Shown piece after piece: positions 2,287-54,171 of a DNA stretch of 64,000 nt (the stretch's first letter is position 1; the number at the start of each line of letters is the position of its first letter). The stretch covers positions 505,173-569,172 of the forward strand of contig CP070695.1 in NCBI GenBank assembly GCA_020353515.1, in the 5' to 3' direction. A program made the translations under genes and the position numbers. The notes beneath the pieces are model-generated. The model ran no database searches, was not told the DNA's origin, and saw only the letters and a list, made by a program, of their open reading frames with translations. The DNA comes from Candidatus Heimdallarchaeota archaeon. GTDB lineage: Archaea > Asgardarchaeota > Heimdallarchaeia > Hodarchaeales > Hodarchaeaceae.

Positions 2287-2307
2287 CGCTTTTAAAGCGC
2301 ATTTTCC

Positions 2308-5784: not shown

Positions 5785-5837
5785 TTTTCTTGATTTTAAA
5801 CTGATTTCAATCCCAATAGAAAAAGGAGAGTCAAAAG

Positions 5838-7259: not shown

Positions 7260-7446
7260 GATCATAAATTATCTTCAATGTCATTTTCTTCTTAGTATCT
7301 AAAAGAAAAATCAGTGTAGTAATTAAATTACAGCTATTTTTCAATATTTAAACCATTTATTTTATAAAATACCTTATAAGGGAAGGAAAAGCATTTCCAT
7401 TAACAACCTATTTATTCTCAGGACTTAATTAGGAAGTCTAATAAAG

Positions 7447-21926: not shown

Positions 21927-24593
21927 TTAAAGAGATTTTTCTCTAAAACGCTGTTTAATTGTTATTAAAACCGAAACTGCAAATAGAAACAGTAACAAGC
22001 TTGGTGCAGACACTTCTTCCTTTGTTGAACTGGTAGTTTCTTTGGATGATTCAGTTCGTGTTTCCTCTGGTTGTTTATCATTTTCTATGGTGAATGTTGA
22101 ATCAGATATATCTTCGACTTGTAAACCTTCGGAGCAAATAGCAACGACTTTGACTAGGTAGTCGGAACCATCAATAATTTCAGTAGTATCCCATCTACAA
22201 TAAAGATTTGAAATATCTGATTCAATTGAATTCCAGGATTCTCCATTATCTCCACTATAATAAACGTTATAGCTAATTATATGCCCCCAATAATCAGTTG
22301 CTTTTGCCCATCGAATAGTGATAACCTCACTGACCGTTTCGCCACCATTTGGATTTTTAACTCTGGGCCGTGAGATTAGATGTATATCCAAGGTCTCGGG
22401 ATTATGAGGATAAGTTAAGGGAGAATTATCAAAATTACCAACGTAACCATCTATGCTATATGGATCATCTACAATTCCATCTCCTTCACCCTCATCGTCA
22501 TCGGGAGATGTCCACTCATCCCAATAATTATATCTGAAAGAGCTTTCAATCCCTTCATCAAAAGCCTGTGAAGTCCCTTCGAGATTATTTCCTACCATAT
22601 CATTCCAATATATTTGATTTGAAGCCCCAGAGTTGATGTAAATCCCATATAAACTATTATGAATCACTAGATTATCATATATAGAAGTTTCATCTGAATC
22701 AATCAGAAGAATACCATGATGATTATTCTCTTGAATAGTATTTCTAGAAATAGTATTTCCGTCCGATGGGTCCATGAATATACCATTTCCTCCACCTAAT
22801 TGCATAATTGAAGAAGTTATCTCGGAAGTGCCTTCTGATGATCCTCCTCCTCCTCCGTTACCGTTCCCATATATATCATTATCCTCAATAATATTGAAAC
22901 TCGAATTTATTACTGTAATTCCATCACCAGAATTATTATGAATCTCATTTCCTGTAATGTTATTGTGATCTGATGGATCCATGAAAACACCATTTCCCCC
23001 CCCAAATTGTTGAATCAAAAAAGAGATATCAGAGATCGTTCGTGAAGATCCCCCACCATTATTGCCATTGCCATAAATATCATTGCCATCAATGAGATTA
23101 TGGCTAGAATTATCCAATCTAATACCATTTTCACTATTATTAAAGATATTATTACCCGTTATTTTATTATAATCAGATGGATCCATAAAAATACCATTCC
23201 CTCCACCAAATTGTTGAATCGAAAAAGAGATATCAGAGATCCCTCGTGAAGATCCCCCACCATTGTTGCCATTGCCATAAATATCATTGCCATCAATGAG
23301 ATTGTAGTTGGAATCCACCAATTCAATGCCATCATCTGTATTATTGAAAATGTCATTATTTGTGATATTGTTATAATTCGATGGATCCATGAAAATACCA
23401 TTCCCTCCGCCAAATTGTTGAATTTTCATCGAAAGCTCAGATATCCCGTGAGAACAGGCAGTAGTGTTCCCATTACAGAAAATATAATTGTTATCAATCG
23501 TATTATTGTGGGAATTAACTAATGTGTTGCCATTTTCAGCATTACTATAAAATGAATTAAGTGTAATGTTATTTTTAATGGAATACCGCGAGAAAAGACC
23601 ACTTTCAGAGTTTTGATAAGCATCATTATCTACTATAGTATTTATGTCACTAGAATCCAGATAAACGCCATCTTCTGAGTTTTGATAAGCTGAATTCCTG
23701 AATAAATCATTATTAGTAGAATTAATAAGCTTAATACCAGCTAGGGCATTATAATACGCTTTATTATCAGATATATTGTTATCTCGCGAAACTTGAAGCC
23801 CTATACCATCCCAACCATTACTGTAGACCTTATTAAGAATGATTTTACTATTATTGGACATGGTGAACCAGATACCAGCCCATGTGTTATTATAAGCTGT
23901 ATTATTGAAACAAGTATTATTAAGTGAGTATTGATAATAAATTCCGCTATTTGTGCTATTATAGACAGTATTAATAGTTAATGTGTTATTATCCGAGTAA
24001 CTTAATCTTATTCCGTTAGTACTATAAGAAAGAACATTTTCTGTCACAGTGTTATTATAGGAATTTTCTAAATTTACAGCACCAACACAATTAGTAATAG
24101 AATTATTAAAAACAATACCATACGTAACATTCTTAAGAAAAACACCATTATAATTTCTAGATATCCCGTTCAACAAGTTAGAAGAAATTTTAAAGAAAGC
24201 TGTGGTGTTCTCAATGTGTATGAGGTGAAAACTGTTATTGGTGATCTGATATCCTTCAATTAAGTATGGTTTGTTGAATGTCCCGTCTCCAGTAAAATTG
24301 TAACCTGCTGGGCCAAAATCCGCATTATCATCAATATAAAACGGATCATGCATCTCATAAGCCATTACACTAGAGCTTGAGGATATTTTAGGTGAGATAC
24401 GAGAGATTTTTTGGTTATTTACCTCTTCTTGAATTTGGATGTTACAGTGGGATTCTTGGAGAAGAGGGACTGAACTATTATATATTAGATGTTGTTCTAG
24501 TTTATATTGAATATGGAGATTAATATTAAACAAAGTAAGCCCAAAAAAAACGATAATTAACAACAAAACCTTTCTAATTTTCATAGATTTCAA
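21927..24593 (-). CDS. Secreted right-handed parallel beta-helix (NosD/CASH) surface protein with Ig/FN3-like domain and C-terminal membrane anchor
   Basis: Signal peptide; many N..GI.L..S.NN.I..N repeats; NYWD.W..PD motif; Ser/Thr linker, hydrophobic segment and basic tail. Confidence 0.88.
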   Translation of the reverse strand: MKSMKIRKVLLLIIVFFGLTLFNINLHIQYKLEQHLIYNSSVPLLQESHCNIQIQEEVNNQKISRISPKISSSSSVMAYEMHDPFYIDDNADFGPAGYNFTGDGTFNKPYLIEGYQITNNSFHLIHIENTTAFFKISSNLLNGISRNYNGVFLKNVTYGIVFNNSITNCVGAVNLENSYNNTVTENVLSYSTNGIRLSYSDNNTLTINTVYNSTNSGIYYQYSLNNTCFNNTAYNNTWAGIWFTMSNNSKIILNKVYSNGWDGIGLQVSRDNNISDNKAYYNALAGIKLINSTNNDLFRNSAYQNSEDGVYLDSSDINTIVDNDAYQNSESGLFSRYSIKNNITLNSFYSNAENGNTLVNSHNNTIDNNYIFCNGNTTACSHGISELSMKIQQFGGGNGIFMDPSNYNNITNNDIFNNTDDGIELVDSNYNLIDGNDIYGNGNNGGGSSRGISDISFSIQQFGGGNGIFMDPSDYNKITGNNIFNNSENGIRLDNSSHNLIDGNDIYGNGNNGGGSSRTISDISFLIQQFGGGNGVFMDPSDHNNITGNEIHNNSGDGITVINSSFNIIEDNDIYGNGNGGGGGSSEGTSEITSSIMQLGGGNGIFMDPSDGNTISRNTIQENNHHGILLIDSDETSIYDNLVIHNSLYGIYINSGASNQIYWNDMVGNNLEGTSQAFDEGIESSFRYNYWDEWTSPDDDEGEGDGIVDDPYSIDGYVGNFDNSPLTYPHNPETLDIHLISRPRVKNPNGGETVSEVITIRWAKATDYWGHIISYNVYYSGDNGESWNSIESDISNLYCRWDTTEIIDGSDYLVKVVAICSEGLQVEDISDSTFTIENDKQPEETRTESSKETTSSTKEEVSAPSLLLFLFAVSVLITIKQRFREKSL
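22740..23500 (-). repeat. Intragenic tandem repeat, about 4 units of 204 nt (68 aa)
   Basis: CCAAATTGTTGAAT anchors at about 23410, 23206 and 23002 (period 204); a fourth unit is 207 nt away. Unit: QQFGGGNGIFMDPS...GNGNNGGGSSR.ISDISF. Confidence 0.9.
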
Positions 24594-24697
24594 CTTCCAC
24601 CTAGATTACTCATGCTTATTGGATTGTTAGAATAAGGATTTTTTGTTTTAGGTAACGGTTATTTTTAAGCTTTGCGAATTATTTGATTTTCTTTGTT

Positions 24698-25306
24698 TCA
24701 AGGATACCCATAATATTCCCGAAAGGTTGTAAAAATTTCATCGTAAGGAAGGTCAGCATACGTTCCTCTATCACTAATATATTCAACAAAAAGGTTCCCC
24801 GCATTATCATACGGTTTAAATGTTGCATCATTCACTCCATCGAAAGTACATACTGGAAAATTATGGCGGTCACAAAGAGGGGTTTGGAACGATGGGGTCA
24901 GCTTTATCCATTTCCCCAAATAAACCTCAGCATATCCATGGAAAACCATGACATTAGTTTGGAGAATCTCATAAATATGTGGTGGAATCCTATGGTTAAT
25001 AATATCGGCAAAATGAAGGCGTGCTGGGATTTGATTTGCTCTATATAATGCTACTAATGCAACTGATTTGGGGATACAAAATCCGACCTTTTTCTCAATT
25101 GTTGTGCTACCTTTCATATCATCTGGTGTTTCATACCTTGTCACATCAATAGTATATTTGATATTATCTCGTACATAATTGAAAGTAGCTATTGCTAGGT
25201 CAACCTTCTTATTATGTTCTGAGGAGAGCTCGTTTGCTAAATTTACTACAATATCTGATTCTGAGTCAATGAAAAATGTTGGATCAAGGTATTCATTTAA
25301 AACCAT
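24698..25306 (-). CDS. Transglutaminase-like family protein
   Basis: FNYVRDNIKY, GFCIPKS (Cys), FHGYAEVYL (His) and W.KLTP motifs. Confidence 0.85.
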   Translation of the reverse strand: MVLNEYLDPTFFIDSESDIVVNLANELSSEHNKKVDLAIATFNYVRDNIKYTIDVTRYETPDDMKGSTTIEKKVGFCIPKSVALVALYRANQIPARLHFADIINHRIPPHIYEILQTNVMVFHGYAEVYLGKWIKLTPSFQTPLCDRHNFPVCTFDGVNDATFKPYDNAGNLFVEYISDRGTYADLPYDEIFTTFREYYGYP

Positions 25307-25338: not shown

Positions 25339-25530
25339 CTACATTCCAATCTTTGGAATAATCGGAAGATATCTCTGGATTTTAGATCCCTGATAGAAAT
25401 GTTTTACTCTTTCAATCTTATCATGAGGTAGTTCAAGCTCTTCAGCTATTTTATTTTGTTACCAACCAGCTATTAATAGAACCAAAACTTTATCAACATC
25501 GTCAGATTCGAGTTCGTACGTTTTACTCAA
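25339..25530 (-). pseudogene. Gene remnant resembling the C-terminus of NH3-dependent NAD+ synthetase (NadE), with internal TAA
   Basis: Reads SKTYELESDDVDKVLVLLIAGW*QNKIAEELELPHDKIERVKHFYQGSKIQRYLPIIPKIGM*; similarity judged by eye. Confidence 0.5.
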
Positions 25531-25554
25531 GGAGTTAAGCCTTTAACTTACTTT

Positions 25555-26994
25555 TTATTGTTTATATAGGCTTTTGTAGTATTCAATTGGAGGTTTTGCA
25601 CCTTCTGGTAGTGGGCTTTCAAAGGGAGTTGTCTTAATCTTCTCCTCAAATTCCTTTTGTGCTTTTTCAACTAACCCCGGATTCTGAAGTAATTCAATAA
25701 CTGCAAGCCCAAGGATCTTGGCAGCAGTTATCATTCCTTTGTGGCCAATACTCATTCCTGCTTGTGCGACTTGTTGCCAAGAATGGCCTGGAGTTCCAAT
25801 AGTACCACAAACGGTCGCAAATTGTGCTAAAGGAGTCACCCAACTCACATCTCCTACATCGGTCGATCCACCTAAAGTGGTTCCACGACCAAAGATCGGG
25901 CTAATTGTATCACAAAATTCTTTCTCCCTAAATCGCTCGAAAAACGGTCTAGCATCTTGTGGAAGGCCAGCTAAGTAATTATCAAAGTAATTTTCTGGAA
26001 AGGATTTACGGAGTTCACAAGCAAATTCGTATTCCTCTTCTGTGAATTGGGGAGGCCCTACCACTTCCATTTTCTCATGTAATAAATCCTCTAAAGTTTG
26101 ATTAGGTAACAAATTCGCTGAACCACCGAGAAGAATCGATTCGAATTCTGTTTCGGTCATCAATGAAGCTCCTTCTGCTACCTTAAGCACTCTAGGATAA
26201 AGTGATTTGACTTCATTAAGACTGGGGGCTCTAACATAATACCATACTTCTGCTTCATCAGGGACAATATTAGGTGCTTGACCTCCGTTCGTAATTACAT
26301 AATGAATACGGGCATCTGGGATAATATGCTCCCGAAGATAGTTGCTTCCAACATTCATGAGTTCAACAGCGTCAAGTGCTGACCGACCATTAAAAGGATC
26401 ACCAGCTGCATGAGCAGTTTGCCCTCTAAAGCGAAAAACAACGTTATACATAGCTTGAAAATTCGTAGCAATGACAAAGTTCACATCCCAAGGATGCCAA
26501 GTCAGAGAAATATCAACATCATCGAAAACTCCTGCATTAATCATCCATCCTTTTCCGTCAGCATTTTCCTCTGCTGGAGTACCATAATATCGGATAGTTC
26601 CATGTACTTCTCCAGATTCTATTGCCTTCTTAACTGCTAAACAAGCTGCCAAGCATGCTGTGCCAAAAAGATTGTGTCCACATCCATGTCCAGGCGCTCT
26701 TTCTTCAAGGGGTTTTTTAATTGGGGTTGTATCTTGACTAAGTCCTGGTAACGCATCATATTCCCCTAAGATTGCAATTATTGGACTTTCAGTCCCATAG
26801 CTCGCTATAAACGCTGTAGGCATGTCCGCTACCCCCAACTCTATTGTAAACCCTGCTTCATTAAGTGTATCCGCTAATAATCTTGAAGACTTTTTTTCAA
26901 ATAAACCTAACTCTGCGTAGTTCCAAATTCTATCACTGATCTGAATAAACTTCTTTTGATTATTTTCAATCCATTCTAATATCTTTACTGACAA
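25555..26994 (-). CDS. M20 amidohydrolase, AbgB-like
   Basis: GEYDALPGL, GHGCGHN, PAEE, WHP, GRSALDA, GSTDVGDVSW and GHSWQ motifs. Confidence 0.92.
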   Translation of the reverse strand: MSVKILEWIENNQKKFIQISDRIWNYAELGLFEKKSSRLLADTLNEAGFTIELGVADMPTAFIASYGTESPIIAILGEYDALPGLSQDTTPIKKPLEERAPGHGCGHNLFGTACLAACLAVKKAIESGEVHGTIRYYGTPAEENADGKGWMINAGVFDDVDISLTWHPWDVNFVIATNFQAMYNVVFRFRGQTAHAAGDPFNGRSALDAVELMNVGSNYLREHIIPDARIHYVITNGGQAPNIVPDEAEVWYYVRAPSLNEVKSLYPRVLKVAEGASLMTETEFESILLGGSANLLPNQTLEDLLHEKMEVVGPPQFTEEEYEFACELRKSFPENYFDNYLAGLPQDARPFFERFREKEFCDTISPIFGRGTTLGGSTDVGDVSWVTPLAQFATVCGTIGTPGHSWQQVAQAGMSIGHKGMITAAKILGLAVIELLQNPGLVEKAQKEFEEKIKTTPFESPLPEGAKPPIEYYKSLYKQ

Positions 26995-27072
26995 TTTTGA
27001 ACACCTAGATTAGATATTCTTATTCGTGTACTTTTTATTCTCATTTCTTAATATCGTTCAAAAAATGTATAG

Positions 27073-27939
27073 GTGAAACAATTGAAAGAAAGTGGGCTTG
27101 ATCCTAATATCGTGGGTAGAATTTACGAAGGAGTAACAACAACAGTTGATCCAGAGAAAACAATGACTTATGCCAAAGCAACAAATGAAACAAACCCACG
27201 ATATTATGAAACAGATGAAAATATGTTTGCTATTCCACCCCTTTTCCCCGTAACCATGTTTATCGATCCGATGATCCAGATAGTTAGTGATGAGACGCTT
27301 AATCTTGATATTCTCCGAATGGTTCATGGTGAACAGGAAATTCTGTACCATCGATCATTAAGACCAAGAGAAAAGATAAAGACTAAAGTTGAATTAGATT
27401 CTATCGATTCCAAAAAAGCAGGAGATATTTTATGGGCAAAGATGATGGGTTATACAGGAGAAGAGCTTGTTTTCGAAATGCGAGCTGGATTGTTCTTTAA
27501 AAAACCAACAAAAGGAAAAAAATTGTCTGAACCAAAAATTAAAGAGTCTTCAACTGAAAGAGAGATTGTAGTCAAACAACAGATGAAAGTAACATCAGAT
27601 CAATCGGTTCGTTATGCAGCTGCATCTGGTGACGAGAATCCTATTCACGTTGACAAAGAGATAGCTATAGCTGCTGGACTACCTGATATTATTCTTCATG
27701 GTTTGTGTACTTTAGCTTTTGCGACACAGGCTATTGTGGATAATCTAGCAGATGGTGATCCAACAAGAGTCAAAAGAATAAAAACAAGGTTTTCAAAGCC
27801 TGTTTTCATGAATGACACTCTTACCACGGAGGGGTGGATATTAGAAGAAAATAAAGCGAAGAAGATTGTTGGTTTTGAAACCAAAAATGAAGCTGGAGAA
27901 GCTGTACTTAAACTTGGATTTATAGAACTCTTAAAGTGA
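27073..27939 (+). CDS. MaoC-type double hot-dog (R)-enoyl-CoA hydratase
   Basis: MVHGEQ and YAAASGDENPIH...ILHGLCT motifs; the start may be TTG 27082 after AGGTGA. Confidence 0.9.
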   Translation: MKQLKESGLDPNIVGRIYEGVTTTVDPEKTMTYAKATNETNPRYYETDENMFAIPPLFPVTMFIDPMIQIVSDETLNLDILRMVHGEQEILYHRSLRPREKIKTKVELDSIDSKKAGDILWAKMMGYTGEELVFEMRAGLFFKKPTKGKKLSEPKIKESSTEREIVVKQQMKVTSDQSVRYAAASGDENPIHVDKEIAIAAGLPDIILHGLCTLAFATQAIVDNLADGDPTRVKRIKTRFSKPVFMNDTLTTEGWILEENKAKKIVGFETKNEAGEAVLKLGFIELLK

Positions 27940-28003
27940 AGTCAATTCAAGCGTACTAATTATTTCTTCATTTGAACAGTCTGGATCAAAGAAAAAATAG
28001 AAT

Positions 28004-29392
28004 TCAAAGTGGGGTGAGGAACCTTCCATATCCTTGGTCTACATGAAAGCTACCAGTATCGTATACTAAATTTCCCCTCACAAATGTTTTCTCGATCGCT
28101 CCTTTTAATTTCATCCCATCAAAAACTGTTACTTTCGGTTTAGTGAATAATTCCTCACTTTTTAGGGTGTATTCTTTTCGCATGTCTACAATTACTAGAT
28201 CTGCATCGGCACCTAATGCAATAGTTCCTTTACGAGGATATAACCCAAATCGCTTTGAAGGAGTTATAGATGTTGATTCGACAACCCTCTGTAATGTAAT
28301 CTTCTTTTTATTGACTGCATCAATCATTAGAGGCAGAATTGTTTCCAAACCAGTTGTTCCTGACCCAACCTCAAAGAAATTATCATCTTTTTGGCTTACA
28401 TCCTTCTCATCATCAGAATAAGGAGAATGGTCTGAAGCTATCATATCTATGGTTCTATCATTCAATGCTTCCCACGCTGCAATAACATGATCCCTTGATC
28501 TCAGAGGTGGGTCAACCTTAGCCCATGATCCTATTTTTTCGCCATCCTCAGATGTAAGGAAAAGGTGGTGGGGTGTTATTTCACACGTTACATCCCATTT
28601 ATTCTGTTTCGCTCTTCTAATATAGTCAAAAGCATTTTTTGAACTCATGTGGACGAGATTGAGCTTTACATTCGCATGATGTGCTAGTAAGAGAGCCCTC
28701 ATACATGCTTCATCTTCAGAAATAGCAGGTCTAGAAGCTGTATGCGCTTTAAAATCTTTTCTCCCCTTAGAAATTAACTTATCAATCTCATTGGAGATTA
28801 TAACATCATTTTCAGCATGAACACTACTAACAAGTCCAGTTTTTGCGATCTCCGAAAAAATTTTCATCAGAAAATAATCATCTTTGGCAGCAAGATCCTT
28901 TAATTCAGCTTCCTCCTCCGAGGGGTTAATCATAAATGTTTTAAAAGCAACGGCTCCTCTTTGAGCTGATTCAGCGATAGTGTCAATGCTCGAATAGCCA
29001 GCTGACCCTATTATCCCAAAATCTACCAAACATCTCTTCTTCATGATATCCAATTGCATATCAAATACTTCAAGTACAGATTTTCCCTCAATACCGAGAG
29101 GCATCTCTAATACAGTTGTTATCCCTCCTGCAGCAGCAGATCTAGTTCCTGTAACAAAAGTTTCCCTATAATCAAAAATTAAATCTAAAATATGAGTGTG
29201 TACATCAATCCCACCAGGGATAACTATTTTTCCTGAAGCATCAATTGTTTCTTGAGCTTTTGGTATGGCATTCTCTTTCCCGATTACTACTATTCTTCCC
29301 TGATCAATACCTAAACTTGCATCAACGAGATCATCTTCTAGGAAAATCTTAGCGTTAACAATATTTAGATCTAGTATTATAATAACCTCCAA
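28004..29392 (-). CDS. Cyclic amidohydrolase (allantoinase/dihydroorotase/hydantoinase family)
   Basis: PGGIDVHTH, AAAGGITT, FKTF, HAEN, HMS, CEITPHHL and SDHSP motifs; probable true start is ATA 29377. Confidence 0.9.
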   Translation of the reverse strand: MEVIIILDLNIVNAKIFLEDDLVDASLGIDQGRIVVIGKENAIPKAQETIDASGKIVIPGGIDVHTHILDLIFDYRETFVTGTRSAAAGGITTVLEMPLGIEGKSVLEVFDMQLDIMKKRCLVDFGIIGSAGYSSIDTIAESAQRGAVAFKTFMINPSEEEAELKDLAAKDDYFLMKIFSEIAKTGLVSSVHAENDVIISNEIDKLISKGRKDFKAHTASRPAISEDEACMRALLLAHHANVKLNLVHMSSKNAFDYIRRAKQNKWDVTCEITPHHLFLTSEDGEKIGSWAKVDPPLRSRDHVIAAWEALNDRTIDMIASDHSPYSDDEKDVSQKDDNFFEVGSGTTGLETILPLMIDAVNKKKITLQRVVESTSITPSKRFGLYPRKGTIALGADADLVIVDMRKEYTLKSEELFTKPKVTVFDGMKLKGAIEKTFVRGNLVYDTGSFHVDQGYGRFLTPL

Positions 29393-42674: not shown

Positions 42675-44057
42675 TTAACCTAAAAAAATCTTCGCTAGAT
42701 TATAATAGACCCTTTGGGAAAACTCTATTGTCTTTATGCTTATCCGTTCATCAGTTCCATGTGCAAGACTTGCTAGATGACTCATTGGAGTTTCTGGATC
42801 AAAGAGAGAGAAACCATATGCTCCCACTCCTCGTTCACGGAAGAACCTACAATCAGAAACTCCAGGCATGATGAAAGGAACTAACACACTATCTGGTTGT
42901 TCTTGTTGGACAGCTTTTTCCATTGCAGTAACAAATTCTGAAGAAGCAAGACTTGCATTACCATAAGAAGTAAACCCTCCTGCTTCAACTGATAAGGATT
43001 CAATTTTCGCTTCTTCAGATAAATCTCCTAATGCCTTTTTCAGATGTATACCAACATATTTATCATCTTGACCTGGTAATGTTCGAATATCTACATCAAT
43101 ATAGCTAGTTGCAGGAATTACGTTAACTTTAGTTCCTCCTTGTACAATATTTGGAGATAAAGTCATTCTAGTAAGACTATGAACTACTCTAGCCATTTGT
43201 GGATCTCTTTTCTTCAAGTTTCTTAGAGTAAACGGTAGTAATCTCTTATTTGTGAGCATCAAGCGTTGAATAAAACCTAAATCTAGACCCTTGGCTAAAT
43301 AATTCAGGTATTCAGTTGTTAAAGGAATTTTAGAATCACAATATTCCCGAATCATTATCATTGCTCGAGCAGCTTTGTGTGCAGCATTGTCTGAATCAAA
43401 TGGCATAGATCCATGGCCAGGTGTTCCCTTAAACGATATTCGTTTCCATGCACCTCCTTTTTCACCGATCATAAAGGCCAATTTACCTGGTGCAATAGAA
43501 AGACCACCAGCTTCTGTAACGAGAAAATCGGTTTTTACTTGCTCAGGATGATTTTTTAACATCCATTCAGCACCGTATATCCCTCCTGCTTCTTCATCGC
43601 TTACAACTAGTAATGTCAAGTCTCCTTTAGGTTGGAAATTCTCTTTTTGGAGTTTTATAAAGGCTTGAACCTGAGTTACAACAATATAGAGCATATCTAA
43701 AGCCCCGCGTCCCCAGACATACCCATCTTTTACAGTTCCGGAAAAAGGATCTACTTCCCAATCATTTGGATTTTCTACAGGAACCACATCTACATGAGCT
43801 GGGCCAAACATTAGTCTGGGCCCCTTTTCCTTTCCAGGAATTCGTGCAACTAGATTCCCCCTATTCGGAGCAGATTCAAAAATCTGACTCTCCACATCAT
43901 GTTCTAGCAAAAAACGATGAATAGTTTGAATTGATTTCATCTCATTACCTGGAGGGTTCACACACTTGTTTTGAATCAGCTCTGAAAGCAATACTATTGA
44001 TTCTTTTACGGAATTTTCCATTATAAACACCATTCTTAGAATTATTTGCAGTAACAA
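42675..44057 (-). CDS. M20/M25/M40 metallo-hydrolase (ArgE/DapE-like)
   Basis: HVDVVP, GRGALDM, DEEAGG, GHGSMP and HGTDER motifs; the true start is probably an internal Met. Confidence 0.92.
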   Translation of the reverse strand: MLLQIILRMVFIMENSVKESIVLLSELIQNKCVNPPGNEMKSIQTIHRFLLEHDVESQIFESAPNRGNLVARIPGKEKGPRLMFGPAHVDVVPVENPNDWEVDPFSGTVKDGYVWGRGALDMLYIVVTQVQAFIKLQKENFQPKGDLTLLVVSDEEAGGIYGAEWMLKNHPEQVKTDFLVTEAGGLSIAPGKLAFMIGEKGGAWKRISFKGTPGHGSMPFDSDNAAHKAARAMIMIREYCDSKIPLTTEYLNYLAKGLDLGFIQRLMLTNKRLLPFTLRNLKKRDPQMARVVHSLTRMTLSPNIVQGGTKVNVIPATSYIDVDIRTLPGQDDKYVGIHLKKALGDLSEEAKIESLSVEAGGFTSYGNASLASSEFVTAMEKAVQQEQPDSVLVPFIMPGVSDCRFFRERGVGAYGFSLFDPETPMSHLASLAHGTDERISIKTIEFSQRVYYNLAKIFLG

Positions 44058-44133: not shown

Positions 44134-44829
44134 TTGAGTATTAAAACCATCTCAATTCTTTTAATTGCTATTTTTTCTATTGTTATTCAACTAGATCATC
44201 CTTATACATTTTCAATACCATTAAATGATCCGCTTGGATATAAAGTTAACGTCGGAGATTTTCGAGAATTTAAATACACGAAATTCTATGATTCTCGATT
44301 ACCTGACCCATCAAAGGACCGACGTTATGCAAGAAATGTTGATGGCGAACTTCAAAACTTTACAATAGAAGAAGGGGTTAAGTTAAAAATAACAATTACA
44401 GATGTGGGGGAGAGTTATATTTCTGGAACCAGAACTATTGAGGATGCAGTGACCATTGAAGAAGACTGGATGGATTTATTTGTTAGGCCTATGACAGATA
44501 ATATATCATTGTTAGCTAAATCTTTTAATGAGAGTGGGAACTTCAAAATTCAGAATAATCACATTATTGAAGAAGTAGATGAACCCTATTCTCCAGAAAT
44601 ATACTATGATTTAAATCGTTCTAGAACCTCGATTTGGGAGAAAACAGGATGGGTTAGTTATTTTCTCATTCGTGTTTATGACGCAGAAACCGTTTATTAT
44701 GAACTGGAGGTCGTGGAGCAACCTTCTCATAGTGAAATTGTGAAATCTAATGAAATATCGGGGGTTTTTTTGCTTAGTATCATTCTAATTGTAGTTGTGT
44801 ATCTCCAATTTGCTTCCAAGAGGAAATGA
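44134..44829 (+). CDS. Hypothetical secreted protein with C-terminal membrane anchor
   Basis: N-terminal signal; C-terminal TM and SKRK. Confidence 0.7.
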   Translation: MSIKTISILLIAIFSIVIQLDHPYTFSIPLNDPLGYKVNVGDFREFKYTKFYDSRLPDPSKDRRYARNVDGELQNFTIEEGVKLKITITDVGESYISGTRTIEDAVTIEEDWMDLFVRPMTDNISLLAKSFNESGNFKIQNNHIIEEVDEPYSPEIYYDLNRSRTSIWEKTGWVSYFLIRVYDAETVYYELEVVEQPSHSEIVKSNEISGVFLLSIILIVVVYLQFASKRK

Positions 44830-44932: not shown

Positions 44933-46123
44933 TTGTCAAATGCTCTAAAGCACGTAAAATATCTTGCAGAGGAAATTGGTCCGCGTGGTTCAACGAGTAA
45001 TGAAGAAAAACTAGCTGCAGAATATGTAGAAAATAATCTTCGGTCTTTAGATAATGTAGATGTTTTCATCCAAACTTTTCGCGGCCTTTCAACATGGACA
45101 TGGACAGTCGTTATGTCAATGCTCTTTGTATTAATAGCAATAGTAATTTATCCGATTTTTCCTCTACTAGCCGCTCTCCTCGTAGTATGTGGTCTATTTT
45201 TCTATATAATGGAAGTTGATAATAGGCCAATCTTATCTAGACTGATGCCTAAAAGAGAAAGCAGAAATGTGATAAGCAGAATAAAAACGGAAAGTATAAG
45301 CTCAGAAAAGGTTGTATTAGTTGCTCATGTTGATACATCAAGAGCTGACTATTCTCACCACCCAAAGAGAGTTACTAGCTTTAGAAAGTTAGCTGTTATG
45401 AATTTGATGCTTGTAGTCTTGGTTAGTATCATCTATTCTCTAGGAGCACTGTTTGATTTTGTCAAAATTGAGATTTTTCCCAATAATGTTGAGTGGTTAT
45501 TCACCCTTCTTCTTGCTATTCCAATACTATTTAGCTGTATTCTAATAATACTGCGAGAATTCTTTTATGATATTTCTCCAGGTGCCAATGATAATGCCTC
45601 TGGAGTTGGTGTTGTCCTAGAATTAATGGATTATTATAGTAAGAATTCATTGAAGAATACAGAAATCTTAGCTGTATTTACAGGCTGTGAGGAAGCTTGG
45701 TGTTATGGAATGATTGAATTTCTCAACCAATATGGTAAGGATCTACAGGAAGCCTATTTCATCAACATTGATAATGTTGGAGCAGGCACTCCAGCATTCT
45801 TACAGATTGAGGGAATGTTTTTTTCTCATAAGGCCGACCCTATACTTCTTAAACTCGCTCGGAAATTACAAAAAAACCATTCAGAGTTACAAGTTGAAGA
45901 ACGCTCTTTTCGTGCTGGGTATCAAGATGGAACAGTAGCAATGGTTAAGGGGTATAAAGCAATAACCTTCTTGGCGCTTGACCAAAACAATTTTCCACCA
46001 AATTGGCATTGGGAAACAGATGTAGTGGAAAATATCGAAGAAAATGTGGTAAGAACGACAGAAGAATTTGTTAAATTGCTTATTACAGCAATTGATCAGA
46101 GAAGTAATACTACTACAATATGA
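44933..46123 (+). CDS. Membrane-embedded M28 family peptidase
   Basis: IGPRGS, AHVD, GANDNASG, GCEE, NIDNVG and WHWETD motifs, with internal TM hairpins. Confidence 0.9.
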   Translation: MSNALKHVKYLAEEIGPRGSTSNEEKLAAEYVENNLRSLDNVDVFIQTFRGLSTWTWTVVMSMLFVLIAIVIYPIFPLLAALLVVCGLFFYIMEVDNRPILSRLMPKRESRNVISRIKTESISSEKVVLVAHVDTSRADYSHHPKRVTSFRKLAVMNLMLVVLVSIIYSLGALFDFVKIEIFPNNVEWLFTLLLAIPILFSCILIILREFFYDISPGANDNASGVGVVLELMDYYSKNSLKNTEILAVFTGCEEAWCYGMIEFLNQYGKDLQEAYFINIDNVGAGTPAFLQIEGMFFSHKADPILLKLARKLQKNHSELQVEERSFRAGYQDGTVAMVKGYKAITFLALDQNNFPPNWHWETDVVENIEENVVRTTEEFVKLLITAIDQRSNTTTI

Positions 46124-46450: not shown

Positions 46451-46879
46451 TTGATCGCAGAGGACATTTTCGAGTTCGAGGGTATACTAATATGCATATT
46501 TTGTGGAAATAAACTCACAGAAAACCGAAAATGGGTAACTCGTCCCAATAAATCGATTTTATGCTCTGAAATTTGTTTAAGGAAACACAAAGCAAAGAGA
46601 GTTTCTGAGCTAAATCATAGAACTGGTGTGACGCTCCAAAAAACAAGAGAAATAGATAAGGAATGGGGTAGTAGAGACCCTTTTCGTGGCGTTGCTCCTC
46701 CAGAAATAACATTCAATCATAGCGAAGACACAAATGATATATCTTTTGAATGGAAAATTGCTATTCCTGATATCCTCGACGTCTTTTATTGGCCTCTTCA
46801 GAAAAAGATGATGATTGAATTGCTTCTTAACTACTCGAAGCTGAATAATGAAAATAATAAGGGTAAGGAAGCGAGTTAG
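46451..46879 (+). CDS. Hypothetical protein with treble-clef (TRASH/FCS-like) Zn motif
   Basis: CIFCG...LCSEIC. Confidence 0.55.
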   Translation: MIAEDIFEFEGILICIFCGNKLTENRKWVTRPNKSILCSEICLRKHKAKRVSELNHRTGVTLQKTREIDKEWGSRDPFRGVAPPEITFNHSEDTNDISFEWKIAIPDILDVFYWPLQKKMMIELLLNYSKLNNENNKGKEAS

Positions 46880-46918: not shown

Positions 46919-49900
46919 TTAATAATATTTCCCTCTCACTCTATTAACCCATTTACTTGTTTCAAGGACGACGAGAGGTATCAGAGCAGCCACAATGCAC
47001 AAAAACCAATCGCCAATGTCAAGTGCAACAATATCAACATATAAACCAAACCCCTTGATTAAATTCTGGGAGAGATCAGGGAGATACATTAAGAAAAGAT
47101 GGATAAGTAGAATTGAAAAAGCAAGAACATAGGTATACCAGTAAGAATCCTCTTTAACAGCTTTCAAGAGAGATTTATCAATACGTCTAATAGATAGAAT
47201 AATCAATGGGATGGCTATATATAAGATTGTATGCATGTAAGTCCGTGCTTTGGCATGATTCCAGCTTTGGGGTCTTAAATTAGGGGAAGCCACTTCATCC
47301 TGAAAAATAGGGATATAAAATTCTTGGTTGATGTTATTTAAAGGAATGAAACTGAAGTAAGTTCCGAAATAGACTACATAGATGACTGTTGCTAATGTAA
47401 TCGATGTCAATAATAATGTAAGAGCTAATCTTCTATTGAATATCCCCGCTGTATCTATTGGATCACGATCCATGATATCTTTGGGGATTCCGTCAATAAT
47501 TAAAGCCAGTGGAGGGAATGTATGTGCAATACCAAATATGTAGGCACGCTGAAGATGATCCATTAATTCAAAACCTGGAATAAACCCAGAGATAAACGAG
47601 GCACCAATGTAGCACCCTGCTTCAGCTAAATTTGCACATATATAAAAGAATATAATAACTCGAATCCTTTGAAAAAGAGCACGGCCTTCTCTGATTCCTG
47701 TCACAATAGAATTAAAGGAATCATCCGCAATGACGAGATCAGCAGCTTGTTTACTCACCTCAGTTCCAGCAATTCCCATTGCTATGCCTGCATCAGCCAT
47801 ACTTAGTGCAAGAGCATCATTGACTCCATCACCTGTCATCGCAACAACACGGTTTTGTTGCTGATACCGTGCAACAATAATTTGTTTATCCTGAGGCGCA
47901 ACACGGGCAAAAACTCTCGTATTAACAAAGTCTTGGTCAGCGAGCTCAGAAGCCATCTTTCCTTCATGTGTTTGATGTTGCTTCTGATAAACCATCCCAA
48001 TGCTATTTGCGATAGAAGATGCTGTAACAGGACTATCACCAGTAATCATAATAGGTACGATTCCTGCTTGAATTGTCTCATTTACAGATTCATCAACAAG
48101 GTCTCTTGGAGGATCCAAGACTGTAACAAATCCAAGATAAGATAGGTTGGTTTCAACTTCCTCTCGTTCTTCCTCACCCTTCTGTGGGAGCTTATCGATA
48201 TTTTTATATGCAAGAGACAATATTCTGTAACCTTGGCCTGCAAATTGCTCCGTATATTCCATTATCTTCTTTTTATCAGCATTAGTTAGAGCTTTACTCT
48301 TTTCTTTGTAACCAATCGAGTTACATCTGGGTAAAAGAACTTCCGTGGCACCTTTGCAAAAAATAACTAACTCAGAGTCTTTTGTGTTGAATACTTTACT
48401 CATGCGTTTTAAAGAAGAATCAAATGGATATTCTCTCTCCAGTTCATAGATTTGTTTAACCTTCTCTTTTTCAATATTAGTCTTGTTAAAAACTGCTAGT
48501 AGGGCACTTTCGGTCGGACTGCCTGTTCCAGTATATACATTCTGCTTCGTTGCCTCAATATATTCTTCAATGATTTCACTATCGTTGTTCAACATCCCAG
48601 ATGTAATTAGTGTTCCTAGAGAGGAGTTAAGTACAACGGGTTCCGATTTAAGGGATTTTGCTTCTTTTTCACCTATCTTTTCCATATCCTTGTCTAATTT
48701 CACAATTTTACCTTCAGGAGAATACCCCAAACCAGTAACATAATAGTGTGTGTCTGTAGTGGCATCCCAAATTCTTTTCACAGTCATTTGACCTGCAGTA
48801 ATAGTACCAGTCTTGTCAGAACATAAAATAGAAATCCTGCCCAAGCTTTCAATTGAAGCCAAGTTTCTAATGATCACTCGGTGTTTAGCCATAGCAAGGA
48901 CACCAGTAATTAAGATAATCGTAGTTAACAGGGGAATATTGATCGGAACTACACTCATGGCCTTGATGATAATGTTGCTAACGTCAAAAATTATTACACC
49001 AATGAGTTCTGTGGGCTTTTTTAAACTGAGTATTCCTTCTTCTAATTGATCAAGAATCCTCGCTCCTTGATAGATAATCAACATACTAAAGACAATAAGC
49101 ATTCCAAATGCTAGATAATTGCCGATAACATTGACTTTTTGACGTATAGGAATGTCTCCTGTGTTCAATTCTTCTAATTCTAGACTAATTTTTCCAAATT
49201 CCGTATTTCCACCTGTATTCACAACCATTGCTAAACCAGATCCCATTGTAGCAAAGGTTCCGTTGAAAAGCATGTTCTTTCTGTCACCAATTGGAGTTTC
49301 AAGTGCAAAAGGTGCTTCCCCTGTTTCCACTTTCGTAGTAGGGACGCTTTCTCCAGTTAATGATGATTCGTTAACCTGGAGAGAGCTTGATTTAATCACT
49401 CTAGCATCAGCAGGAATTTTATCTCCTTGAGCGATTTTTATGATATCACCTGGAACAACTTCCTCAGTAGGAATTTCCACCTCATTACTATCACGGATGA
49501 CACGAGCCTCTGGAGCTGCAAGTTTGTGAAGAGCCTCTATCTTTTTTTGCGCACGTGCTTGTTGAATGATCGCAATAAGGAAATTTACACCAACAATGAC
49601 TACCCATTGTGCCGCTGTAAACCAAATAGAGGTATCCGCAGGATCGATAAATAGATAAAAAAATGCTAAGAGAAAAATGAAAGATGTCATTATGAGATAA
49701 ATAACTATTAGTGTGTTTAACAACGGAGCTAAATATACCTGCCAGAAACTCTGTTTTGGTTTAGGAATTAAATTGACACCATATTTCGCCAATCTCCTTG
49801 ATGCATCGTCTTGTGATAATCCTTTTTCAAGATCCGAATCTAATTGCGAAACAAGTTCATTTAGCTCAAGTGAATGTCCACTAATAGCAGTGGGTTTCTG

Positions 49901-49921
49901 TTCTATGTCAATTATTGCCAT
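46919..49921 (-). CDS. P-type ATPase, P2-like scaffold with atypical membrane motifs
   Basis: TGES, CSDKTGT, KGA, DPPR, MITGD and TGDGVND motifs; about 10 TM segments; TM4 reads VVPINIP. Confidence 0.95.
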   Translation of the reverse strand: MAIIDIEQKPTAISGHSLELNELVSQLDSDLEKGLSQDDASRRLAKYGVNLIPKPKQSFWQVYLAPLLNTLIVIYLIMTSFIFLLAFFYLFIDPADTSIWFTAAQWVVIVGVNFLIAIIQQARAQKKIEALHKLAAPEARVIRDSNEVEIPTEEVVPGDIIKIAQGDKIPADARVIKSSSLQVNESSLTGESVPTTKVETGEAPFALETPIGDRKNMLFNGTFATMGSGLAMVVNTGGNTEFGKISLELEELNTGDIPIRQKVNVIGNYLAFGMLIVFSMLIIYQGARILDQLEEGILSLKKPTELIGVIIFDVSNIIIKAMSVVPINIPLLTTIILITGVLAMAKHRVIIRNLASIESLGRISILCSDKTGTITAGQMTVKRIWDATTDTHYYVTGLGYSPEGKIVKLDKDMEKIGEKEAKSLKSEPVVLNSSLGTLITSGMLNNDSEIIEEYIEATKQNVYTGTGSPTESALLAVFNKTNIEKEKVKQIYELEREYPFDSSLKRMSKVFNTKDSELVIFCKGATEVLLPRCNSIGYKEKSKALTNADKKKIMEYTEQFAGQGYRILSLAYKNIDKLPQKGEEEREEVETNLSYLGFVTVLDPPRDLVDESVNETIQAGIVPIMITGDSPVTASSIANSIGMVYQKQHQTHEGKMASELADQDFVNTRVFARVAPQDKQIIVARYQQQNRVVAMTGDGVNDALALSMADAGIAMGIAGTEVSKQAADLVIADDSFNSIVTGIREGRALFQRIRVIIFFYICANLAEAGCYIGASFISGFIPGFELMDHLQRAYIFGIAHTFPPLALIIDGIPKDIMDRDPIDTAGIFNRRLALTLLLTSITLATVIYVVYFGTYFSFIPLNNINQEFYIPIFQDEVASPNLRPQSWNHAKARTYMHTILYIAIPLIILSIRRIDKSLLKAVKEDSYWYTYVLAFSILLIHLFLMYLPDLSQNLIKGFGLYVDIVALDIGDWFLCIVAALIPLVVLETSKWVNRVRGKYY

Positions 49922-50294: not shown

Positions 50295-51005
50295 ATGGAT
50301 AACGACCATAAAAGTAATATTATTCTAAAAAACATACAAAAAACCTATTTGTTAGGAAAACAAAGTGTCCCAGCTCTGCGTGGGATAGATATCGAAATTA
50401 AAAGGGGGGAGTTTATTGGTGTCACAGGACCTTCGGGTTGCGGGAAAACTACACTTCTAAACTTAATTGGAGCAATTGACAAAGCAACTAGAGGGACAAT
50501 TATTGTCAATAATATTAATCTCACCACAGCATCTGATAATACTCTTGCAGATATTAGATTAAAACATATAGGTTTTATTTTTCAATTTTACAACCTTTTG
50601 AGCTATTTCACGGCACGAGAGAATGTTGAAATGCCTATGACATTTTTAGGGGTTCCTAAGAAAAAAAGAAGAACTAGAGCAAAAGAACTGCTATCTTCTT
50701 TAGGGATTGGAGATCGTGCTGATCATCTACCAAGTGAATTGAGTGGAGGCGAGCAACAGCGTGTCGCTATTGCACGTGCTTTAGCGAATAACCCTTCCAT
50801 CATTTTAGCAGATGAACCAACAGGAGATCTCGACTCTGTAACTGGAGAAGAGATTATGAATATACTTGTTGACTTAAATAAAGAACGAGGGGTAATAATT
50901 GTACTTGTAACACATGACCCCCCTACTGCGCAATATGCAGATCGTATTCTTTCAATGCATGATGGGAAAATCGTCAAGGACATTATTAGTCCACTAAAAA
51001 CCTAG
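50295..51005 (+). CDS. ABC transporter ATP-binding protein (MacB/LolD type)
   Basis: GPSGCGKT, GFIFQFYNL, LSGGEQQR, ADEPTGDLD and VTHD motifs. Confidence 0.95.
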   Translation: MDNDHKSNIILKNIQKTYLLGKQSVPALRGIDIEIKRGEFIGVTGPSGCGKTTLLNLIGAIDKATRGTIIVNNINLTTASDNTLADIRLKHIGFIFQFYNLLSYFTARENVEMPMTFLGVPKKKRRTRAKELLSSLGIGDRADHLPSELSGGEQQRVAIARALANNPSIILADEPTGDLDSVTGEEIMNILVDLNKERGVIIVLVTHDPPTAQYADRILSMHDGKIVKDIISPLKT

Positions 51006-51021
51006 GAATGGAGGTGATTAT

Positions 51022-54000
51022 ACGCCAATTCGTGTCCCTTGGTTTTATGCAGAATTTATTCTCAGAACTATTCGTAAGAAAAAAGCACGGGCTATTTTGG
51101 GTTTTCTTGGAATGATGGTAAGCGTGTCTTTGATTGTTTCTATGAATGTTTTGATTGACTCTCTCGCAGCTGACTCACTAGCGATAGCAACCGCCTCAGC
51201 AGGAGAAGTAGATGTTGAATTTGAACTAGTGAGTGCAGATAATCACAATGTTTTTACATGGGCAATAGATGTGAATATTACCGATCAACTTGAAATCAAT
51301 GATGTTTTCGACGATGGGTCTTGGGATGGATCTTCATTAACTAAATTGGGGTTTTTTCGACCTTGGTTCAATGCCACAGAATTAGTGCAGATCTATAACA
51401 AACAACCAGAATTAAGAGGTGTAAGTCCACGGTTAATAATAGATTCTGATTATGTACGGACCTCCTCAGAACGATCTGAACCATTTCCCACATCACTAAT
51501 TTTCATAAATACAACGAGAGAGGATCAACTAGATATAGGATCGCTTGTGAGTTATCAGAAAAATACTCCAGTTCCAAAACTTGAAGCAAACCAAGTTTAT
51601 ATTCTACCTTCTGCTGCTAGATCTTTAAACGTCACGACAGGAGATTTAATTGAGATTGAGCTTTATCCCTTTGGCCTCAATGATAATAAAAATCGATCTG
51701 AGATCCTAGGACTTAATGGAACCATTAATTTGAGTATTGCATCAATCGTTAAAAATCAAGAACGATTCGAGTCGGGACTTTCTAATGCTATCCTATTGGA
51801 TTATGATATGCTCTTTACAATCTTTCAAAATTATAACATAACAACAAAAGAGATTGCCAATCAAATAGTAGGAGCTTTTCCAGATGTAGACGGCATCCAG
51901 GGAGGTGGAACTTACAATTATAGAGATTTAGAAGGTATGAAGGCAAAAACCCTGAAGATAGGAGAAAAATTAACTAGCTTACTCCCTTATGACACAGTAT
52001 TCCCATCCGAAGATCAGCAGTATCATATTATGTTCTCAATCTCTTTTCCAAGAGTTCAAGCCATTCTATTCATTGCTGAGATTTCAACAATTGCACGGGT
52101 GCTTTTAGATTTCATGGCTGCTATCGCATTAATAATTGGAGGCGTTTTAATCTATTCGCTACAGACAGTAAGTGTAGAAGAACGTATAAGAGATTTTGCA
52201 ATAATGAGGACAGTTGGAGGAAAACGAAGACAAATTTGGATTATGGTAGCTATTGAGGGCCTCTCTATTGTAACTTTAGGTAGTATTACTGGAATATTTG
52301 CATCTTTAGGGCTAGCTCCAATCTTTATGCGAATCATGAGATTTGGAGACATAGCTTTGGTCATCTCTGAAGTTTCAGTTTTGACTGGACTAGTAGCAGG
52401 ATTAGGGATTGGAATCGTTTCATCTTTTTTACCAGCTTATAGGGCAACCGCAACCAATATCGTGAAAGGATTAGACCCATTACGTCAATCTATACCTGAA
52501 GCAAAATTCTCTAGAGAGAGAGGAATTAACCTGACTTTGTTAGGAGTAGGGATAGTGTTAACCATAACCTCAGCTATTGTAGTTGTTGCAATTCCTCAAG
52601 TATTAGTGGGTGGTGGATTCATATGGTTAGCTTTTCTAATTTTTGGATTGCTTTTAGTATTATTAATAGGATTAGACCTTATTTCAGTGGCATTGCTGAT
52701 TCCCGTTATGGAATTTCTTTTTTCTTTGCCTTTAGAACTTTTCAGAAAAACTAGGAAAGTCAAAGATATTGTTGTTCGTTCTTTGAGGAGAAACAGAAGA
52801 CGAACAACAGCTACAGCAGTCATGTTTAGTCTTAGCTTTGCCTTTGTCTTCTTTGTAGGAGTTACTATGGAAGTGGATGCCGCAACAGCAGAGTATAATG
52901 CAATTATGTCAAATGGTAGTGATGTTGTTCTCACAAGTCAGCGTACAGGTTTTTTCTTTTTCTTTTTTGGTAGTAGAGACAAAGTTTACTACCCTATAAA
53001 TTATGGTGAACAGATCAAAAACAGATTTCTTGAACAAGAACGCCACCGATTAGGGAATGATTCTCTAGAACTTAAACGCTATAACCGTTCCTTGAGCTTT
53101 ACAGAAGTGACACCAGATTTGTCATATGCTAGAACTATGTTTAGTTTAACCGAGGGAAATGAAACCAAAGAATATGATGCAAGCGTAAGAATTGGAGACG
53201 CCTCATTCTTTGATTCACTTTCAGCAAATATTTATGGAATCGCTCCCAATTTCCTAGATATCTTATATAACAGAATCACTTTTTCTCAAGGATCTCTTAC
53301 CGATATAACAGCTGTAGCAGAAGGTGAGTTAAATACAGCGGTAATATCAACTGGATTAGCTTCAGAGTTTAACTTAAAGAGAGGTGATCCTTTCAGGTTA
53401 CGTATTTCGACATTTAATGCCACTTATGACATATTAAACCTAACTGTAAAAGCTGTACTGGATGCAGCTCCAGGATTCTCTGGATTCAGCACAGGAACAG
53501 GATTTGGTGGATCAGACGTCTGGGTCAGTCAAGAAACTTGGCAATCATTACGTCAGATAATTCACTCAGAGAAATTACTTGCTCCATTTGGATATCTCCC
53601 AATCGAAAAGATATTCTTCAAAATTGAAGACCCTGAAGCTGGACACGATCCTGATTTTAAGCTTGAACTCGGAAAGAAACTTGGTGAGTTCCTGTCGATT
53701 TATTATCCTGATGCAGCCAATGAGGTCACCGTAGAAGAAGTTGAGAATGCAAAGGAATCCGCAGCATCAGGTCAGGCATTATTCAGTACTATAATGAGTT
53801 TAGCTGTTATAATTTCATTTTTTGGATTAATGAGTTCAATGTATAGTTCGGTTCAGGAAAGTCAATTCGAGATCGGTGTTTTAAAGTCAATGGGATTGAG
53901 AAATGGTGATGTTCGTAATTACCTTATATTTGAAAGTACTATTCTCACGTTGAGTTCAGGAGCCTGTGGAGCTCTAATCGGGTATATTTTGGCGTATACC

Positions 54001-54171
54001 TTTGAATTTCAATCAGCGAGCTTCTCAGAGTCACCTATAATTTTTGTCGTACCATGGTTCCTTTTAACATTCCTTTTTGTCACATCTATTATTGTTGGTA
54101 TACTTGGAGCTGTGATACCTGGTCGGATTGTAGTGAGTAAAAGTCCTGTAGAGATTCTTCGAAGAGGATGA
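51022..54171 (+). CDS. FtsX/MacB-like ABC permease with two FtsX domains
   Basis: ER.RDFAIMRTVGG and EIGVLKSMG motifs. The conserved N-terminal ILRTIRKKKARAILG lies upstream of the track's TTG 51097; probable start is ACG 51022 after GGAGGTGA. Confidence 0.9.
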   Translation, partial: TPIRVPWFYAEFILRTIRKKKARAILGFLGMMVSVSLIVSMNVLIDSLAADSLAIATASAGEVDVEFELVSADNHNVFTWAIDVNITDQLEINDVFDDGSWDGSSLTKLGFFRPWFNATELVQIYNKQPELRGVSPRLIIDSDYVRTSSERSEPFPTSLIFINTTREDQLDIGSLVSYQKNTPVPKLEANQVYILPSAARSLNVTTGDLIEIELYPFGLNDNKNRSEILGLNGTINLSIASIVKNQERFESGLSNAILLDYDMLFTIFQNYNITTKEIANQIVGAFPDVDGIQGGGTYNYRDLEGMKAKTLKIGEKLTSLLPYDTVFPSEDQQYHIMFSISFPRVQAILFIAEISTIARVLLDFMAAIALIIGGVLIYSLQTVSVEERIRDFAIMRTVGGKRRQIWIMVAIEGLSIVTLGSITGIFASLGLAPIFMRIMRFGDIALVISEVSVLTGLVAGLGIGIVSSFLPAYRATATNIVKGLDPLRQSIPEAKFSRERGINLTLLGVGIVLTITSAIVVVAIPQVLVGGGFIWLAFLIFGLLLVLLIGLDLISVALLIPVMEFLFSLPLELFRKTRKVKDIVVRSLRRNRRRTTATAVMFSLSFAFVFFVGVTMEVDAATAEYNAIMSNGSDVVLTSQRTGFFFFFFGSRDKVYYPINYGEQIKNRFLEQERHRLGNDSLELKRYNRSLSFTEVTPDLSYARTMFSLTEGNETKEYDASVRIGDASFFDSLSANIYGIAPNFLDILYNRITFSQGSLTDITAVAEGELNTAVISTGLASEFNLKRGDPFRLRISTFNATYDILNLTVKAVLDAAPGFSGFSTGTGFGGSDVWVSQETWQSLRQIIHSEKLLAPFGYLPIEKIFFKIEDPEAGHDPDFKLELGKKLGEFLSIYYPDAANEVTVEEVENAKESAASGQALFSTIMSLAVIISFFGLMSSMYSSVQESQFEIGVLKSMGLRNGDVRNYLIFESTILTLSSGACGALIGYILAYTFEFQSASFSESPIIFVVPWFLLTFLFVTSIIVGILGAVIPGRIVVSKSPVEILRRG

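Follow-up and report, generated by a model that had tools for sequence, protein, structure and literature searches.

The window analysed here, a stretch of 64,000 nucleotides from the genome of a Candidatus Heimdallarchaeota archaeon, carries on its minus strand a complete P-type ATPase gene (46919-49921; all of the features of the pump given below lie on this strand). The gene is a single open reading frame (ORF) without internal stops, and its product, P0001, is a protein of 1000 amino acids with ten predicted transmembrane (TM) helices, as judged from the ORF list and its translation, Pfam and an AlphaFold2 (AF2) model. The Pfam domains make up the full P2-type set (Cation_ATPase_N, E1-E2_ATPase, Cation_ATPase, Hydrolase and Cation_ATPase_C); neither Pfam nor the translation yields a metal-binding domain at the N- or C-terminus. 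An earlier note on this DNA had advanced two propositions: that P0001 joins an intact, P2-like catalytic core to a membrane domain unsuited to standard Ca2+ handling, and that it may carry a lipid or organic substrate as an intermediate to, or a convergent relative of, the P4 flippases. The first is borne out in its particulars; the second is not.

Each motif of the core stands where it had been placed. The A domain carries TGES in its dephosphorylation loop (49346-49357, amino acids 189-192, in the context LTGES, 188-192), and G190, E191 and S192 are invariant in an alignment (A1) of 22 diverse members of the family described below. The phosphorylation motif DKTGT (48803-48817, amino acids 369-373) is likewise invariant in A1; its phospho-Asp, D369, lies 43 residues from the proline of TM4 (P326), the spacing noted before. 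KGA (amino acids 523-525) and DPPR (603-606) are followed by the hinge motif TGDGVND (47816-47836, amino acids 696-702), which runs on into ALAL where canonical pumps have APAL; the change, at L704, is one of those that set the family apart in A1 and in the comparison with canonical sequences. All that defines the P-type superfamily (HAD-IC) is present (DKTGT, a TGES-type loop, KGA, DPPR and TGDGxND), and the superfamily model TIGR01494 is passed at 253.8 bits against a cut-off of 62.3.

P-type pumps bind ions at unwound stretches of TM4 and TM6, and both helices are changed in P0001. Residue equivalences were taken from HMMER alignments (of P0001 to Listeria LMCA1, and of a family profile to human SPCA1); the SERCA numbering was assigned by way of the motifs. 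TM4 reads VVPINIP, with the motif PINIP at 48932-48946 (amino acids 326-330; PINI, as the earlier note had it, at 48935-48946) in place of PEGLP: translation, LMCA1 alignment and A1 put I327 at the position of SERCA E309 and N328 at that of G310. Position 327 varies among the 57 family sequences assembled for the tree described below (Ile in 47, Val in 3, Phe in 3, Trp in 2; Leu also occurs), and it is N328, against the canonical Gly, that discriminates the family from canonical pumps. TM5 retains its N..E (ANLAE, amino acids 763-767; NLAE at 47621-47632, amino acids 764-767): the LMCA1 alignment equates N764 and E767 with the site I residues N768 and E771 of SERCA, and E767 is kept in all 57 sequences, N764 in 53. 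TM6, QRAYIFGIAHTFPPLAL (47501-47551, amino acids 791-807), is indeed altered: F796, A799 and H800 replace N796, T799 and D800. The earlier note did not remark that the histidine (47522-47524) belongs to the family as a whole, being kept in 55 of the 57 sequences, and Q791 in 56. If discriminating positions are defined as those conserved within each group and differing between family and canonical sequences, His for Asp in TM6 is the sharpest difference of all; the Asp is also found in Asgard P3A pumps and in E. coli MgtA. P326, N328, E767, Q791 and H800 are the invariant membrane residues of A1, and P803 is nearly invariant.

The window's own lineage differs from the rest of the family in TM8. 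Its I904 (47210-47212) aligns with the TM8 Asp of SPCA1 (SERCA E908, site I), an alignment that could be made only with the family profile: a phmmer run of the C-terminal TM region by itself against PDB sequences gave zero matches. Of 101 other family sequences, 100 have Glu in this column; Ile stands there in 34 of the 36 that make up the window's subclade (at least 64% identity), and a scan of the positions that discriminate the subclade found no conserved acidic replacement. This leaves Glu767 as the one conserved carboxylate that was identified at the aligned site. The loss of the TM8 Glu seems to be a new observation. The SERCA-type ligands of Ca2+ site II are thus gone from P0001 (E309 to I327, N796 to F796, D800 to H800), and what is left of the conserved polar residues corresponds to site I: N764 and E767 in TM5, H800 in TM6 and, outside the window's subclade, the TM8 Glu. 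With a site so changed, SERCA-like Ca2+ binding would be impossible, and standard Ca2+ handling is as unlikely as had been supposed.

Could this be no more than a canonical site in decay? Full-length homologs, gathered by word-indexed and exhaustive HMMER searches and ranging from 90% down to about 35% identity, all share the same site, and canonical PEGLP proteins appear in the ranking only below about 460 bits. The family numbers at least 137 sequences (the 101 and 36 compared at TM8), and a pattern kept across all of these is the product neither of chance nor of local decay. Close orthologs with PEGL, which the earlier note would have read as a sign of lineage-specific decay, were sought among close homologs and none was found; decay of that kind is ruled out, in that close orthologs never carry PEGL. 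Judged by its preservation at these distances, the changed site is conserved and selected. None of the papers found in full-text searches describes such a family, with PxNxP in TM4 and His in TM6 (PxNxP/His), and it apparently represents an undescribed P2-like subfamily, mostly Asgard-archaeal, as far as its sequences tell. An Asgard transportome paper from the Saier laboratory says only that every Asgard proteome has a "putative Ca2+ ATPase".

Of 301 sampled genomes of the window's phylum (Asgard), about 200 give a match at the level of the family (E below about 1e-170), about 60 reach only the canonical level, and in 36 nothing matches at E<=1e-100 (tallied by eye in the result table); the survey of Asgard genomes that the earlier note had proposed accordingly finds the motif to be widespread. 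Several of these genomes have two unlinked copies. So broad a distribution, with its frequent second copies, suits a housekeeping role. (Tandem PxNxP/His duplicates also occur, in G025 on contig C86 at 1223-4126 and 4592-7489, and in G181 on contig C13 at 22237-25110 and 25394-28297.) The closest homologs are labelled Hodarchaeales, Hodarchaeota, Promethearchaeota, Heimdall-, Thor-, Odin-, Hel- and Njordarchaeota. Named members from outside the Asgard group come from Korarchaeota (P0127), Bathyarchaeia (P0113) and a cultured bacterium, Dehalogenimonas etheniformans (P0117, 43% identity). The bacterial copy looks sporadic, because none of 351 sampled Chloroflexota genomes gave a family-level match to the Dehalogenimonas protein, in a search without a positive control. 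A sample of 301 genomes taken via L025, which is probably not the Thermoproteota that were intended, also gave no family match, again without a positive control. A contig scan with A1 and the patterns DKTGT and TGDGVND returned only canonical P2A-like loci (29-35% identity); these patterns are universal and the scan is consequently uninformative about the family's distribution.

A maximum-likelihood tree was built from 114 sequences: 57 provisionally assigned to the family by their TM4 motif, 48 canonical P2A-like (the window genome's own three paralogs among them), six Asgard P3A, E. coli MgtA and, as outgroup, two P1B. The family forms one clade (SH-aLRT, the approximate likelihood-ratio support, 100) that takes in 56 of the 57 provisional members; P0194, a motif misassignment that reads SEGLP, falls outside. 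This clade stands beside the canonical P2A clade (93), and the pair (94) is separate from P3A plus MgtA; the basal branching order is poorly supported (35). Measured against these prokaryotic references, the family of P0001 lies outside the canonical P2A clade and is not nested within it. The earlier note had held that robust nesting in a bacterial cation-pump clade would remove the flippase-ancestry reading. No such nesting is seen, the family being a clade of its own, but its place beside canonical P2A speaks against flippase ancestry all the same, as far as prokaryotic references can speak to it.

All of the class models score P0001 far below their own cut-offs. PMR1 (P2A, TIGR01522) gives 420 bits against 798, and the second-best model, P2D (TIGR01523), 405 bits in one full-length stretch against 645; then come SERCA (P2A, TIGR01116; 380 against 703), PMCA (P2B; 352), Na,K (P2C; 342), P3A (TIGR01647; 310 against 615) and P3B (296). 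The P5 model (TIGR01657) gives 255 bits against 618, and TM4 reads VPINIP rather than the P5 PP(E/D/A)LP; P4 (TIGR01652), at 110 against 431, trails all other 10-TM class models by a wide margin. The AF2 model of P0001 (pLDDT, the predicted local distance difference test, 80.7; pTM, the predicted template-modelling score, 0.71) breaks TM4 at 323-328, which includes N328, and TM6 at 800-801, which includes H800. Its best Foldseek matches are SERCA E2 states (TM-score 0.81), with no P4 or P5 structure among the best 50, and structural-alignment identity is 28-29% to P2A and 16-20% to P4. The structural comparison with SERCA and P4 that had been suggested comes out for SERCA in this ranking, but a second structure search, independent of Foldseek, leaves only a small margin over P4 (Z 24-27, against 27-30 for P2 and P3 pumps).

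Which of the known pumps does P0001 most resemble? The P2A pumps (LMCA1, SPCA1/PMR1, SERCA) share with it their domain set, the ten TM helices, TGES, DKTGT, TGDGVND and the NxxE of TM5. LMCA1 matches P0001 at 362 bits and the family profile at 654 (SPCA1 and SERCA at about 600), it has a structural Z of 30.3, and the P2A clade adjoins the family in the tree; P0001 differs in having no site II, an invariant Asn for G310, ALAL for APAL and a separate clade (100). The P3A pumps (plant AHA2, fungal Pma1 and archaeal forms) have the same arrangement of TM4, Pro-hydrophobic-x-x-Pro (IPVALP in Asgard P3A), and a charge-poor site suited to H+, in which P0001 is like them; AHA2 has a structural Z of 27.6. 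They are nevertheless shorter, at about 815 amino acids, form their own clade with MgtA, and keep as proton acceptor the TM6 Asp that P0001 replaces with His. The P2D pumps (fungal ENA, PfATP4) are close by their class model (405 bits), and PfATP4 is the second-best structural match, with a Z of 29.5, a structural-alignment identity of 23% and a root-mean-square deviation of 4.2 A, the lowest among the top full-length matches. Mycobacterial CtpE is a parallel in another sense. In Palmgren's 2023 review (PMC10654040), a class "P6" is proposed for CtpE, a prokaryotic P2-like pump in which the TM6 Asp, omnipresent elsewhere, is gone and PEGL remains, and further undescribed prokaryotic P-type families are expected. 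By that description P0001 is set apart: CtpE has PEGL in TM4, Ile in TM6 and bacterial homologs, and P0001 has PINIP and His800 and is mostly Asgard in distribution.

The window's genome, one closed contig of 4.94 Mb, encodes six P-type ATPases. Besides P0001 there are two P1B pumps of the CPC type and three canonical P2A paralogs, which have PEGLP or PEGLA in TM4, NxxE in TM5 and N(L)xTD (NLVTD) in TM6 and are 31-32% identical to P0001; with these three and the two CPC pumps in the same cell, P0001 must have a distinct role. No P3A gene was found in this genome with TIGR01647. (Elsewhere, P3A genes above the cut-off of that model are present in 25 of 151 sampled Asgard genomes, in up to four copies, for example at L138, G041:C7:257992-260217.) In several Asgard genomes P3A co-occurs with the PxNxP/His family. 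Given this co-occurrence and the canonical paralogs, the family is more than an Asgard version of the Ca2+ pump or the P3A proton pump.

What, then, might such a site carry? The best explanation, which as a whole we hold to be somewhat likelier true than false, is that P0001 is a working P-type ATPase with a standard E1/E2 phosphoenzyme cycle and that it pumps a small inorganic cation other than Ca2+, probably a monovalent one. The site would be formed by N328, where TM4 is unwound, by N764 and E767 of TM5 and by H800 at the break in TM6. Such a set (one carboxylate, one imidazole, two amides) would favour a monovalent cation: H+ may travel on a Glu-His relay, or Na+ or K+ may be bound instead. 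The pump would serve ion or pH homeostasis, and the three Ca2+-type paralogs and the two P1B metal pumps would cover other ions. A monovalent substrate fits the wide and often duplicated distribution of the family, its similarity to P2D and PfATP4, and the presence in the genome of dedicated Ca2+-type and heavy-metal pumps. Several considerations weigh on the other side. The choice of ion is a guess. Divalent transition metals, too, can be bound by a set of Glu, His and Asn; no conserved neighbour, regulator or riboswitch at the family loci hints at an ion; the tree holds only prokaryotic P2A-like, P3A, MgtA and P1B references; and fold Z-scores barely separate the classes (27-30 for P2A, 24-27 for P4). 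The fold being so poor a discriminator, the case rests on sequence models, motifs and the tree.

That a divalent metal (Mn2+, Fe2+, Zn2+, Ni2+, Co2+ or Mg2+) is bound through His800, Glu767 and the Asn amides, which would make P0001 a P2-built counterpart of the P1B pumps, is unlikely. In its favour, an invariant His and Glu, to which most of the family adds another Glu, are typical ligands of transition metals, and P1B-4 pumps offer a parallel in the His-Glu motif of their own TM6. Against this, the window's lineage lacks the second carboxylate and is left with one negative charge, the protein has no metal-binding terminal domain, two CPC-type P1B pumps are already at hand in the genome, and no metal regulator or riboswitch is seen beside about 60 loci. 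It is considerably less probable that P0001 transports Ca2+ after all, by way of an unusual site or in the reverse direction. Here CtpE would be the analogy: it handles (imports) Ca2+ without the TM6 Asp, according to PMC10654040 and PMC5615198, and P0001 does keep N764 and E767 of site I. CtpE, however, has PEGL and a TM6 Ile by the same account, P0001 has no PEGL and a single conserved carboxylate at the aligned site, and the genome has its three canonical Ca2+-type paralogs.

Least probable of all is that P0001 is a flippase, or that it carries some other organic substrate (a polyamine, say), whether as a convergent form or as an ancestor of the eukaryotic P4 or P5 pumps. The resemblance to P4 (ATP8A1/2, Drs2, Neo1) consists of ten TM helices, an Ile right after the TM4 Pro, as in PISL, and the absence of an acidic residue from TM4; most charged residues of the site are indeed lost, and the P4 structural Z (24-27) is only slightly below that of P2. 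P4 flippases carry DGET in the A domain, and their PISL has no second Pro. P0001 has TGES, as the earlier note had itself observed, keeps TGDGVND, and retains the second TM4 Pro (PINIP) as do P2 and P3 pumps. The Ile is ambiguous: Asgard P3A pumps carry Val at this place (IPVALP), so that a hydrophobic residue here is not specific to flippases, and what is shared with P4 is, in these sequences, limited to a hydrophobic residue after the TM4 Pro whose identity changes from member to member (I, V, F, W, L). The class models are far from passed (P4 at 110 of 431 bits, P5 at 255 of 618), the clade adjoins prokaryotic P2A, structural-alignment identity is 28-29% to P2A against 16-20% to P4, and an invariant polar core of Glu, His, Asn and Gln is the signature of an ion site. 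The CDC50-like partner that had been suggested as a check is not found in the 4.94-Mb genome (best PF03381 match 12.7 bits, E 0.15), and at E<=1e-45 the P4 model matches none of 101 sampled Asgard genomes, a weak null since its positive control was silent. According to PMC10654040, pumps of classes P4 and P5 occur only in eukaryotes. The idea of a P4 intermediate, ancestor or convergent form is not supported, and nothing examined favours a lipid or organic substrate. A bolder reading, of doubtful standing but not so remote as the flippase, would make the PxNxP/His clade a new P-type class on a par with the proposed P6, largely confined to Asgard archaea, the group that stands closest to eukaryotes, and with a substrate foreign to P2 pumps (NH4+, a transition metal, a polyamine or the head group of a lipid would be examples); the Hodarchaeales-type lineage would then have gone one step further through loss of its TM8 Glu.

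Few pumps are as well understood as the P-type ATPases, and one can see in the family a natural experiment on ion specificity: the TM6 Asp is near-universal in P2 and P3 pumps, and here is a large, conserved clade that has swapped it for His and dropped the TM4 Glu. Roughly two of every three sampled Asgard genomes carry the family, often in duplicate, so that it probably belongs to the basic ion economy of these archaea, a poorly known subject that matters for how the archaeal host of eukaryotes is pictured. The inviting idea that eukaryotic lipid flippases had a prokaryotic precursor here is set aside as a false lead. The homolog in cultured Dehalogenimonas etheniformans offers a practical experimental route.

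The surroundings of the gene vary from lineage to lineage. Among 21 Asgard loci (8 kb to either side) and 19 from metagenomes, no neighbouring gene recurs from one lineage to another, synteny being confined to families; 150 kb around 19 homologs gave 0 Rfam matches at gathering score, riboswitches included; and no metal regulator or riboswitch was seen to adjoin about 60 family loci. In the window, the ATPase gene diverges from a MacB-like exporter, an ABC ATPase (50295-51005, plus strand, PF00005) followed by a double FtsX permease of 1024 amino acids (51097-54171, plus strand); this exporter is not conserved beside the gene in other lineages. Downstream of the ATPase lie an M20/M25/M40 peptidase (42675-44057, minus strand) and a membrane-anchored M28 peptidase (44933-46123, plus strand), with ORFs at 44134-44829 and 46451-46879 that have no Pfam match. 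An ORF of 142 amino acids, converging on the 3' end of the ATPase gene, is outside every neighbour cluster common to at least three loci.

Some other observations were made in passing. A cytoplasmic molybdopterin-binding protein of the sulfite-oxidase/MsrP fold (about 190-200 amino acids, PF00174, Cys motif FHCVEGWS) stands beside family ATPases at 7 of 69 loci (L122:7329-7913, plus strand; L121; L135; L136; L153:152-733; L163; L166), which represent at least two genome families (f17 and f18) and one metagenome contig set; in four it is directly upstream and on the same strand. The window's genome has homologs of this protein that are distant from the ATPase gene, at 2.52 and 4.37 Mb. P0168, P0169, P0186, P0228, P0239 and P0257 are P-type ATPases of 1400-1700 amino acids with the pump in the C-terminal half; several have odd TM4 motifs such as CPAA or APAS, and these proteins resemble the uncharacterised CtpH/CtpI type mentioned in PMC10654040. 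Finally, a metagenome contig encodes another non-canonical P-type ATPase (L159:1-2286, minus strand), with PEELP in TM4 and LLEMFMD in TM6, about 4 kb from a member of the PxNxP/His family.

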